Positions 8,379-13,107 of a stretch of DNA of 30,487 bases are shown here, piece after piece. The stretch's first letter is position 1, and the number at the start of each line of letters is the position of its first letter. The translations under genes were made by a program, and so were the position numbers. This DNA is from a virus (Duplodnaviria; Heunggongvirae; Uroviricota; Caudoviricetes). The notes beneath the pieces are model-generated. The model saw nothing but the letters and a program-made list of their open reading frames with translations, did not search any database and was not told where the DNA came from. The stretch lies in the IMG/VR virus record IMGVR_UViG_646311924_000014; one strand, written 5' to 3'.

Positions 8379-10316
8379 GTGACTCTTAAACGGGCCTGTT
8401 CCCTGCTGACGGTGAAATCCTTCAGTGAGGATGAACGGGTGATCACCGGGATTGCGTCAACGCCTTCTCCGGATCGGGATGGTGACATCCTGGAGCCGGA
8501 GGGCGCGGAGTTTGGCAGTGCGATCCCGTTTCTCTGGCAGCATGACCATTCCCGCCCGGTGGGGCAGTGTACGGTACGCCGGGTCAGCGAAGGGCTGGAA
8601 ATCACGGCAACACTGGTGAAGCCCGTACCGGATATGCCGTCGCAACTGGCTGCCCGGCTGGATGAGGTCTGGGCGGCCATTAAGACCGGGCTGGTCAGGG
8701 GGCTGTCCGTGGGCTTCCGTCCCCATGAATACACCTTTCTGGACGGAGGCGGACTGCATTTTCTGCGCTGGGAACTGATGGAGGTGTCTGCCGTCACCGT
8801 GCCCGCGAATGCGGAATGCACCATCCGGACCATTAAATCTTACGACCGCCCGTTTTCTGCCGCGTCCGGCAACCGGAAACCGGTGGTGAAAATCGCATCT
8901 TCTGCCGGCGCTGCGGCACAGTCAACAACCGTTTTTCATAAGGAAAAGACCATAATGAATATTGGCGAACAGATTAAAAGTTTTGAAAACAAGCGTGCAG
9001 CGCTGGCAGCCTCCCTTGAGGAGGTCATGACCAAAGCCGCAGAGGAAGGGCGCACGCTGGATGTGGAGGAGGAAGAGCACTACGACAACACCGCAGCGGA
9101 AATCCGTCAGGTGGATGCGCACCTGAAGCGCCTGCGTGAACTGGAAGCCGGTAAGGCCGCCACGGCGCAGCCGGTGAAACAGGCCGGTAACGGGAATGTG
9201 GCCGCGGTGGCTTCTGCGCCGGTGATCCGTGTGGAGCAGAAACTGGATAAGGGGATTGGCTTCGCCCGCTTTGCCAAATCGCTGGCTGCGGCTAAAGGCG
9301 TCCGATCTGAAGCCCTGGAAGTGGCCCGTCGTCAGTATCCGGATGACAGTTGTCTGCATCATGTCCTGAAATCGGCAGTGGGCGCGGGGACCACCACGGA
9401 TCCGCAGTGGGCAGGCAGCCTGTCTGAATATCAGGAATACGCACAGGACTTTATTGATTACCTGCGTCCGCAGACCATTATCGGGCGATTTGGTCAGGGC
9501 GGGATCCCTGCACTTCGTCAGGTGCCGTTCAATATCCGTGTGCACGCCCAGGTGTCCGGCGGTGCTGCCGGCTGGGTGGGTGAGGGTAAGGCCAGACCCC
9601 TGACGAAGTTTGATTTTGAATCCATCACCTTCAGTCATGCGAAAGTGTCGGCCATTGCGGTACTGACGGAAGAATTGATCCGTTTTTCCAGTCCGGCTGC
9701 TGATGCACTGGTCCGTAATGCGCTGGCGGAAGCGGTGGTGGCGCGTCTGGATACAGACTTTGTGGACCCGAAAAAAGCCGCAGTGGCAGATGTCTCCCCG
9801 GCGTCCATCACCCATGATGTGAAGGGCACGGCATCAACCGGTAACCCGGATGCGGATGCAGAGGCTGCGTTTGGACAGTTTGTGGCAGCAAACCTGCAGC
9901 CCACCGGTGCGGTCTGGCTGATGTCCAGCACCAATGCCCTGGCACTGTCCATGCGTAAAAATGCGCTGGGTCAGAAGGAATACCCGGACATGACCCTGCT
10001 GGGTGGCTCCTTCCAGGGGCTGCCGGTGATTGTCTCCCAGTACGTGGGTGACCAGCTGGTGCTGGTGAATGCCCCGGATATTTATCTGGCGGATGACGGC
10101 GGCGTGGCAGTGGATATGTCCCGTGAAGCATCACTGGAAATGCAGTCTGAGCCGACCGGCGACAGTACCACGCCGTCCCCGGTGGAGCTGGTTTCCATGT
10201 TCCAGACAGGCAGCGTGGCCATCCGTGCGGAGCGCTGGATCAACTGGCGTCGTCGCCGTACCGCGGCGGTGGCGGTGATCACCGGAGTGAACTACGGCAG
10301 TGCGTCCGGCGGCTGA
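8379..10316 (+). CDS. Prohead protease – scaffold-like linker – major capsid protein fusion (645 aa)
   Basis: N-terminal approx. 160 aa has the HK97 prohead protease pattern (…ITGIASTPSPDRDGDILEPEGAEF…WQHD…); a charged coiled-coil segment follows; C-terminal approx. 330 aa resembles an HK97-fold capsid protein; GTG start after AGGAGG. Confidence 0.8.
   Translation: MTLKRACSLLTVKSFSEDERVITGIASTPSPDRDGDILEPEGAEFGSAIPFLWQHDHSRPVGQCTVRRVSEGLEITATLVKPVPDMPSQLAARLDEVWAAIKTGLVRGLSVGFRPHEYTFLDGGGLHFLRWELMEVSAVTVPANAECTIRTIKSYDRPFSAASGNRKPVVKIASSAGAAAQSTTVFHKEKTIMNIGEQIKSFENKRAALAASLEEVMTKAAEEGRTLDVEEEEHYDNTAAEIRQVDAHLKRLRELEAGKAATAQPVKQAGNGNVAAVASAPVIRVEQKLDKGIGFARFAKSLAAAKGVRSEALEVARRQYPDDSCLHHVLKSAVGAGTTTDPQWAGSLSEYQEYAQDFIDYLRPQTIIGRFGQGGIPALRQVPFNIRVHAQVSGGAAGWVGEGKARPLTKFDFESITFSHAKVSAIAVLTEELIRFSSPAADALVRNALAEAVVARLDTDFVDPKKAAVADVSPASITHDVKGTASTGNPDADAEAAFGQFVAANLQPTGAVWLMSSTNALALSMRKNALGQKEYPDMTLLGGSFQGLPVIVSQYVGDQLVLVNAPDIYLADDGGVAVDMSREASLEMQSEPTGDSTTPSPVELVSMFQTGSVAIRAERWINWRRRRTAAVAVITGVNYGSASGG

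Positions 10317-13107: not shown

Follow-up and report, generated by a model that had tools for sequence, protein, structure and literature searches.

A prohead protease-capsid fusion gene with a putative nested start and covarying stem-loops in the head module of long-tailed Stx phages

How is the ratio of maturation protease to capsid protein set when a single open reading frame (ORF) holds both? The question is raised by a stretch of viral DNA of 30,487 nucleotides (nt) (Caudoviricetes; IMG/VR record IMGVR_UViG_646311924_000014; this whole stretch is called the window below), in which one ORF of 645 amino acids (aa), located between the gene for the terminase large subunit (TerL) and that for the portal, joins a prohead protease to the major capsid protein. 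A conserved internal start at the junction of the two would be a simple answer, and it is the main subject here; two further questions are what role is played by two deeply conserved, covarying small stem-loops inside the linker-coding region, and how a phage whose capsid gene precedes the portal gene keeps capsid expression high and portal expression low.

The fusion and its position were pointed out in an earlier note on this DNA, made from the sequence alone. Both the fused gene and the gene order are already known and visible in public annotation: in the record of a published Stx2a phage (AP012539), the fusion ORF bears the name 'major head protein/prohead protease' and the large ORF after it is labelled as the portal, and other depositors name the fusion gene 'capsid and scaffold' or 'major capsid protein'. 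As first stated the observation adds nothing new; its value is as an entry point to the three testable questions above. What the present comparison of sequences would add are a nested start, two covarying stem-loops, a split ribosome-binding site (RBS) and a fusion of the portal to a second protein; neither the internal start, nor the intragenic hairpins, nor the portal fusion is discussed in the papers that full-text searches returned.

The fusion ORF is organized as follows:

8379..10316, + strand: fusion ORF of 645 aa with a GTG start, comprising prohead protease, linker, delta-like helices and HK97-fold major capsid protein (profiles and model)
8379..8807, + strand: protease domain, residues 1-143 (Peptidase_S78; beta-rich domain at residues 9-143 in the AlphaFold model)
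8808..8954, + strand: disordered linker, residues 144-192 (predicted local distance difference test, pLDDT, <50 at residues 144-191)
8961..9161, + strand: delta-like (scaffold-like) helical hairpin, residues 195-261 (AlphaFold helices 195-223 and 229-261, pLDDT 84-90)
9255..10304, + strand: HK97-fold capsid domain, residues 293-642 (Pfam Phage_capsid; Foldseek)

Profiles and an AlphaFold model (43 sequences as input, mean pLDDT 75.7) agree on a 645-codon fusion of protease, charged helical linker and capsid fold, as the earlier note had described it; PHROG 617 covers the protein over its full length (1e-261), and the model shows a second disordered stretch at residues 267-285. The profile searches assign the N-terminal domain to a prohead protease, again in line with the note: Pfam PF04586 (Peptidase_S78) matches residues 48-152 with 34.7 bits, above its cut-off of 21. 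TIGR01543 reaches 46.5 bits, under its equivalog cut-off of 59; membership in the HK97 family of prohead proteases holds at the level of the Pfam family only. His55, Ser110 and Glu135 hardly vary (conservation of 90% or more in the 43-sequence alignment, the residues missing only from the rows of stand-alone capsid proteins) and are candidate catalytic residues. For the capsid part, PF05065 (Phage_capsid) matches residues 386-635 with 53.8 bits (cut-off 24.2) and TIGR01554, the HK97 major capsid family, residues 204-584 with an E-value of 3e-22 and 79.3 bits (cut-off 27.5); in a Foldseek search the capsid fold of the model finds the capsids of Bxb1, HK97, D3 and T5 as top matches, with E-values from 4e-14 (Bxb1) to 1e-9 and 1e-10 for HK97. 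A sequence search of the fusion protein against the PDB returns capsid matches only, none to a protease. The family NF045541, 'prohead protease/major capsid protein fusion protein', scores 54.7 bits over residues 48-286 against a cut-off of 525; its architecture is alike, but the family is different from that of the window protein. A single ORF leads from an S78 protease via a disordered linker and a helical scaffold-like segment to a capsid domain with the HK97 fold.

The ORF opens with a strong Shine-Dalgarno motif (AGGAGG, 8368-8373), located 5 nt ahead of the GTG at 8379. A second potential start lies at the junction of linker and delta-like helices, where the DNA of the window reads cat-AAGGA-aaagaccata-ATG:

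8940..8957, + strand: candidate internal RBS AAGGA (8940-8944) and in-frame ATG (8955-8957, Met193); the predicted product is a 453-aa delta-plus-capsid protein

The window thus has an in-frame internal start with an RBS at the boundary between the protease and its partner, and Met193 marks the beginning of the ordered delta-like helices in the AlphaFold model. The conservation of this start was followed in a set of 110 loci from alpha-, beta- and gammaproteobacteria, with identity of the fusion protein down to 32%; 29 of them were taken from one-genome-per-species contigs and 80, a diverse group, from viromes, the latter obtained with an alignment headed by a distant homologue (a scan of viral contigs with the single protein returned only E. 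coli loci of 96-100% identity, of no use for covariation). A start codon stands at the junction, 3-9 codons ahead of a conserved EQI motif, in 101 of 102 single-ORF fusions; over a wider search window, the codons chosen in the 102 fusions are ATG in 94, GTG in 6 and TTG in 2. Pairing of the 17 nt upstream of the start with the anti-Shine-Dalgarno sequence reaches -5.6 kcal/mol or lower at 73% of the junction starts as against 12-13% of the controls (other in-frame ATGs or sampled codons), and -7 kcal/mol or lower at 41% as against 2-3%. The amino acids that encode the motif vary (K-G, K-E, Q-E-G, E-E-G, K-E-G); where it contains a Gly codon (17 loci, alignment read by eye), this is GGA in 15 and GGG in 2, GGA making up only 9.3% of the Gly codons in the fusion genes. 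Stand-alone homologues of 456-472 aa begin exactly at the position of the window's Met193 (MNIAEQI, MNYAEQI, MKTIQE), and in three unfused relatives (L183 and L027/L028) a stop codon is followed by a Shine-Dalgarno motif and a capsid ATG at the homologous Met.

Since the unfused relatives start their capsid gene at this conserved junction start, we lean cautiously towards a nested gene like lambda C/Nu3, in which the ORF would also make a second, protease-free capsid protein from the internal start; the pattern suggests that most capsid subunits may be made without protease. In the mechanism proposed, initiation at GTG 8379 would yield the full-length protease-scaffold-capsid protein and initiation at ATG 8955, from the internal RBS, the 453-aa scaffold-capsid protein; the two would co-assemble, so that a minority of subunits would bring a covalently tethered protease into the prohead. 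Once the prohead is assembled, the protease would cut off the linker, the delta-like segment and its own domain, as gp4 of HK97 processes gp5. For the full-length product, delivery of the protease as part of the capsid subunit followed by autoproteolytic removal, as the earlier note had proposed, seems the natural reading. Taken together, two products, co-assembly, self-removal and the hairpin roles discussed below form what we consider the probable overall explanation of the locus.

Several points count against it. The internal Shine-Dalgarno motif of the E. coli sequence, AAGGA at -6.2 kcal/mol, is of modest strength and stands 10 nt ahead of its ATG; ribosomes coming from the upstream start could occlude the internal RBS; and the motif and its Met could be left over from an ancestral gene boundary or be maintained because the protein requires them. 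In a T=7 prohead built from full-length protein throughout, the protein inside the shell would by our rough estimate amount to about 13 MDa, which is dense but possible; and the case for two products is made entirely by sequence comparison. The alternative, which is how the earlier note saw the gene, is that only the full-length fusion is made and each capsid subunit brings its own protease and scaffold segment, the internal motif and Met then being a remnant of the ancestral protease/capsid boundary or having a protein-level or pausing role. The continuous ORF behind its strong upstream AGGAGG, the moderate strength of the internal motif and the feasibility of an all-fusion prohead are all compatible with this. 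It does not readily account for a junction start that is kept in 101 of 102 fusions although these are just 32-77% identical, for a roughly six-fold enrichment of Shine-Dalgarno strength over controls, for a motif maintained via a rare Gly codon and through varying amino acids, or for unfused relatives that use exactly the equivalent of Met193 as their start; we regard it as rather unlikely, though a serious contender.

The nested arrangement would combine features of several known systems. The window resembles HK97 in several respects: its protease is of family S78, with His and Ser as candidate catalytic residues; its capsid protein has the HK97 fold and, at the N-terminus, a helical scaffold-like domain; a separate gene for a scaffold is absent; the portal is of the HK97 type; and the terminase genes have an HNH gene as their neighbour. 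In HK97, the protease and capsid genes are separate and placed after the portal, and the protease is targeted non-covalently; in the window, by contrast, protease and capsid share one ORF ahead of the portal, and, judging from the genes, some copies of the protease at least would be covalently tethered. The N-terminal protease with an in-frame internal start is shared with lambda C/Nu3, UL26/UL26.5 of herpes simplex virus 1 (HSV-1) and HFTV1 gp17/gp17.5, where the internal start yields the more abundant assembly partner; unlike in these, the nested product of the window would be scaffold-plus-capsid rather than free scaffold, its internal initiation is putative, and its protease belongs to family S78, not to the lambda C or herpesvirus type. 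Nested protease/scaffold genes have been reviewed, and HFTV1 gp17/gp17.5 has been shown by ribosome profiling (bioRxiv 10.64898/2026.09.13.751334). A single gene for maturation protease, scaffold and major capsid protein has also been described as gp5 of Pseudomonas phage MD8, whose protease resembles lambda C and whose capsid protein resembles that of Mu (PMC8508860). Fusions of this kind are an accepted class in annotation, as the name of NF045541 shows, and papers on actinobacteriophages (clusters AU, AW, EE and others) use the label 'major capsid and protease fusion protein'; these fusions realize the same two-domain idea as the window, in different hosts.

The second question concerns the region just upstream of the internal start. 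Across 18 fusion genes from Enterobacterales, synonymous diversity averages 0.51 (standard deviation 0.10) and is lowest, at 0.04-0.29, over residues 158-193, on which all 25 of the 25 analysis windows of lowest diversity are centred. This part of the linker-coding region is so invariant because it contains two stem-loop motifs, located 37-96 nt upstream of the internal start:

8859..8870, + strand: HP1, predicted stem-loop GCC-GCGUCC-GGC, encoding A-A-S-G (consensus GCC-GCGNNN-GGC)
8903..8918, + strand: HP2, predicted stem-loop UGCCG-GCGCUG-CGGCA, encoding A-G-A-A-A (stem of 4-5 bp, GCGYYN loop)

In HP1, the two Ala codons read GCC GCG without exception in 73 distinct relatives, 70 of which also have GGC as the Gly codon. 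In HP2, the four core pairs are Watson-Crick in all 71 distinct relatives, whose sequences were picked by the peptide pattern alone. One of these pairs switches between CG (38) and GC (33), corresponding to Pro..Gly and Ala..Ala in the protein, never mixed; another, in which both partners are wobble positions, is CG in 48, UA in 22 and GC in 1. The covariation score of HP2 is 0.459, against 0.160 +/- 0.018 for shuffled alignments (0 of 500 reach it) and at most 0.157 for controls slid along the sequence; by parsimony on a neighbour-joining tree, the switching pair has changed at least 8 times and the wobble-wobble pair at least 4 times. The loop GCGUCA is found in both HP1 and HP2, in different reading frames, which argues for selection at the level of RNA (or DNA), possibly alongside a peptide signal. 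An Rfam scan of 8250-10650 gave nothing above noise. Programmed frameshifting at the two stem-loops was considered and set aside, as by inspection no slippery heptamer lies upstream in the window or in its relatives and the stems are just 3-5 bp long; set aside, too, were the long outer stems that RNAfold predicts around HP1 in single sequences, which are clade-specific and cannot be aligned reliably.

The linker motifs A-A-S-G and [AP]-G-x-x-[AG] might instead be peptide signals, for example sites of self-cleavage by the protease, and no RNA stem-loops. They do lie in the disordered linker, where maturation cleavage is expected, the two peptide motifs are alike, and some relatives have 'AASG' twice. 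A signal in the protein, however, would not fix synonymous positions such as those of GCC GCG in 73 of 73 relatives, nor hold the wobble-wobble pair of HP2 always to Watson-Crick partners, nor bring about the joint change of residues 1 and 5 between Ala..Ala and Pro..Gly in at least 8 steps on the tree, nor place the same GCGUCA loop in two reading frames; as the sole explanation, peptide signals thus appear doubtful, while selection on RNA and peptide could coexist. As to what the stem-loops do, a head protein could, for instance, bind them as its operator, or they could give rise to a separate capsid message by serving as a site of processing or by stabilizing its 5' end. That the fusion ORF is a regulated three-in-one gene, in which the ratio of the two products is set or autoregulated via HP1 and HP2, is a speculative idea to which we give little credence at present; if true, the nested protease/scaffold design would here have taken a new form, equipped with an RNA element for its control.

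The third question, of how capsid and portal expression are kept apart, leads to the ends of the fusion gene, both of which carry a hairpin:

8340..8367, + strand: terminator-like hairpin (8340-8357) and T-run between TerL and the fusion gene, directly ahead of the AGGAGG of the latter (terminator scan)
10324..10352, + strand: AAGGAGG (10324-10330), followed without a gap by a hairpin of 9 bp (10331-10352) that has a GUGC loop and lacks a U-tract
10361..10582, + strand: orf73, small and conserved, located between the genes for capsid and portal (PHROG 829, E 3.7e-39; annotated as hypothetical protein)

The upstream hairpin recurs in the listed relatives of the gammaproteobacterial type as ACCCGC-NNNN-GCGGGT followed by TTTTTCGTTTC, with variants of loop and stem; with one conserved hairpin before and another hairpin after the fusion gene, the capsid cistron is bracketed by hairpins. 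The downstream one, ACGGGAGGC-GUGC-GCCUCCCGU (10331-10352), is longer than the 8 bp at 10331-10348 given in the earlier note, which was right that it lacks a U-tract: its tail is AACAGGTT, and the terminator scan reports no site there. The stem has a folding free energy of -17.8 kcal/mol and its 66-nt context one of -25.8 kcal/mol (z = -3.06). Of 99 distinct loci, 51 have a perfect stem of at least 7 bp no more than 60 nt from the stop codon of the fusion gene, as against 3.2% of control windows; with at least 6 bp the count is 58 of 99, comprising 51 different stem sequences and a T-rich tail in 17 of the 58.

A hairpin conserved in position but built from unrelated stems would fit an element for 3' stability or processing of the capsid message, as the earlier note had suggested; most likely it would protect or define the 3' end of this abundant message and so separate high capsid from low portal expression. 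In the Enterobacterales it may have a second role. The window shows the arrangement AAGGAGG, 22-nt hairpin, 8 nt, ATG of orf73, so that Shine-Dalgarno motif and start codon are parted by a stable hairpin and no motif stands at normal spacing, which is the layout of a split RBS. A Shine-Dalgarno motif lies directly 5' of the hairpin in 24 distinct loci (-5.7 to -11.9 kcal/mol, all but one at or below -7), and in the 23 of these that are of the Enterobacterales type the ATG of orf73 follows 6-11 nt 3' of the hairpin with no Shine-Dalgarno motif between; 17 distant loci have an ATG 17-28 nt beyond the hairpin, preceded by an ordinary Shine-Dalgarno motif. Folding of the Enterobacterales-type hairpin would bring the motif and the ATG of orf73 to working distance, and we infer that it acts as the spacer of a split RBS for this gene. 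In phage T4, genes 38 and 25 have a split RBS, in which a stable hairpin keeps the Shine-Dalgarno motif apart from the start codon and folding restores a functional spacing; unlike in T4, the hairpin of the window also stands immediately 3' of the stop codon of a highly expressed gene and may serve both genes. The gene that would be served, orf73, has tblastn matches in Enterobacterales and Snodgrassella loci and overlaps the start of the portal gene by 55 nt.

Against these roles, a perfect stem of at least 6 bp is present in only 58 of the 99 distinct loci (only perfect stems being counted), and the absence of a U-tract belongs on this side as well. The hairpin might also be a plain intrinsic terminator or attenuator that lowers transcription of the portal gene, with no role in stability or for orf73; its conserved position right after the most abundant structural gene, the T-rich tails of 17 relatives and the terminator-like hairpin with T-run behind TerL could be read in this way. 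In the window itself, however, the hairpin lacks a U-tract; late transcription of lambdoid phages is Q-antiterminated and reads through terminators; and the layout of Shine-Dalgarno motif, hairpin and ATG (24 loci, 23 of them of the Enterobacterales type) points to a translational role. A mere terminator is accordingly improbable, and a stability element that in the Enterobacterales may double as an RBS spacer is the reading we retain.

The arrangement of the gene between TerL and portal is itself conserved. In tblastn searches with the window proteins, the portal lies downstream of the capsid domain in all 101 loci where it is found, without a reversal, and TerL lies upstream of the protease domain in 85 loci and is never reversed. 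The earlier note, correct in placing the portal after the capsid gene, called this order non-canonical; it does depart from the order of HK97 and lambda, but within its own lineage it is the rule. TerL-fusion-portal is an invariant, ancient trait of the lineage, and the fused architecture between TerL and portal is the rule in a large group of proteobacterial phages. The same order is kept where protease and capsid are separate ORFs, in two Snodgrassella loci (L027 and L028, 7001-9048) and the virome locus L183 (2210-4237). A further locus, in Parasphingorhabdus (L029, 7001-8427), has its protease gene behind the capsid gene, which lacks a delta segment; as the rest of the module is missing, it was set aside.

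Homologues of 644-648 aa number in the thousands throughout the Enterobacterales (clustering at 90%), and at 50% clustering there are 12547 cluster representatives at E <= 1e-3, 1178 of them at E <= 1e-30; among the best 150 of the 12547, about 130 are full-length fusions of 630-680 aa. With a lineage of this size (the 1178 representatives at E <= 1e-30), answers to the three questions would extend to many proteobacterial prophages. That the fusion is an artefact, in which a frameshift, pseudogene formation or mis-assembly has joined separate genes in a decaying prophage, as the separate ORFs of L027, L028 and L183 might suggest, is ruled out for practical purposes by this distribution, which includes the 644-648-aa ORF in thousands of Enterobacterales clusters, a single ORF in 102 of the 105 related loci with both domains placed, the roughly 130 full-length fusions among the best 150 representatives at 50% clustering, and phage genome records, some of them named as isolates (2851, vB_EcoS-783R2).

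The large gene downstream of orf73 contains an HK97-type portal, as the earlier note had expected, together with a second protein, here called X:

10528..13107, + strand: ORF of 859 aa, portal and X
10528..11889, + strand: portal core, residues 1-454 of the 859-aa ORF (TIGR01537; related portals end at about 445-470 aa)
11890..13107, + strand: protein X, 405 aa, joined to the portal in the same frame (N-terminal helix, repeats, C-terminal domain)

The portal assignment rests on TIGR01537 (portal_HK97, residues 45-388, E 2e-104, 349.5 bits against a cut-off of 112) and PF04860 (Phage_portal, E 5.5e-81, 272.7 bits against a cut-off of 39.1), and is borne out by matches to solved structures (PDB 9lbn, 1e-28 over residues 43-420; the HK97 portal 8cez, 3e-20 over residues 45-400). 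The note's identification of the ORF as a portal holds for the core of about 454 aa; the remainder is normally a separate downstream gene. X is a separate ORF in 69 of the 72 related loci with a homologue of its C-terminal half, and in the Enterobacterales junctions that were printed out its ATG overlaps the portal stop codon as ATGA. Joined portal-X genes are found only in the window (with near-identical E. coli records), in the Pantoea locus L016 (about 1243 aa) and in L155; the window has kept the start codon of X, ATG 11890, and a purine-rich run preceding it.

Separate X proteins among the relatives range from 294 to 556 aa. In the window, X contains a tandem repeat (12115-12647; 162 bp, 3.3 copies, 94% matches) that encodes PxPxDG[KR][DS] motifs parted by helices; the C-terminal domain, about 150 aa long and strongly conserved, closes with a CBM5/12-like motif. 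The CBM_5_12 match is weak in the X of the window, yet precomputed in many homologues. The structure model of X is poor (pLDDT 60.5), and Foldseek finds no match at E <= 1e-3; the only similarities it gives are local ones, to chitin-binding domains of the CBM5/12 type. Databases contain many fragments of the X region, 165-261 aa long, under the names 'portal protein, partial' or 'carbohydrate binding domain protein'. A carbohydrate-binding-like domain at the capsid-interior end of a portal is odd.

The genes discussed so far belong to a DNA-packaging and head-assembly module that occupies 5440-13796 of the window and is of the type of phage 2851 and the Stx1a-Stx2c-converting phages, in a long-tailed lambdoid prophage. 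The ORF list gives its order, all on the + strand, as HNH, TerS, TerL, [protease-linker-delta-capsid], orf73, portal(+X), connector; the remaining genes are:

5440..5805, + strand: HNH endonuclease gene, start of the module (Pfam HNH, E 7.5e-7; annotated in E2863 and phage 2851)
6094..6657, + strand: terminase small subunit, TerS (Pfam Terminase_2, E 1.5e-8; terS in the E2863 and phage 2851 records)
6654..8315, + strand: terminase large subunit, TerL (Pfam TerL_ATPase and TerL_nuclease)
13110-13436, + strand: head-tail connector gene (Pfam Phage_connect_1; TIGR01560)
13446-13796, + strand: head closure gene (Pfam Phage_HCP; TIGR01563)

The HNH gene occupies the matching position in most related loci. 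About 7.5 kb of the module (window 6000-13500) are 100% identical to E. coli E2863; phage 2851 (Pankowvirus) is 98.5% identical to the module, and Stx1a-, Stx2a- and Stx2c-converting long-tailed phages and prophages of enterohaemorrhagic E. coli carry it at 97-100% nucleotide identity. The window is a member of this group and shows essentially no difference from it. With 1257 of 5426 complete E. coli genomes carrying the module, at a median of 5 places per genome, it is among the commonest prophage head modules of pathogenic E. coli; 95 phage records match it, mainly those of Stx1a-, Stx2a- and Stx2c-converting phages.

Elongated heads have been reported for a long-tailed Stx2c phage and for the Stx1 phage H19J (PMC12029490). 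Because many of the record matches are to Stx2c and Stx1a phages, the elongated-head phages may be carriers of the module; if they are, a prolate capsid would be built from the fused, putatively nested capsid gene. Despite the 100% identity over 6000-13500, the window does not stem from the prophage copy of E2863: in that otherwise near-identical prophage, an IS91-family transposase is inserted in the tape-measure gene (L001 20158-21710, corresponding to about 17970 of the window), and the window does not have this insertion.

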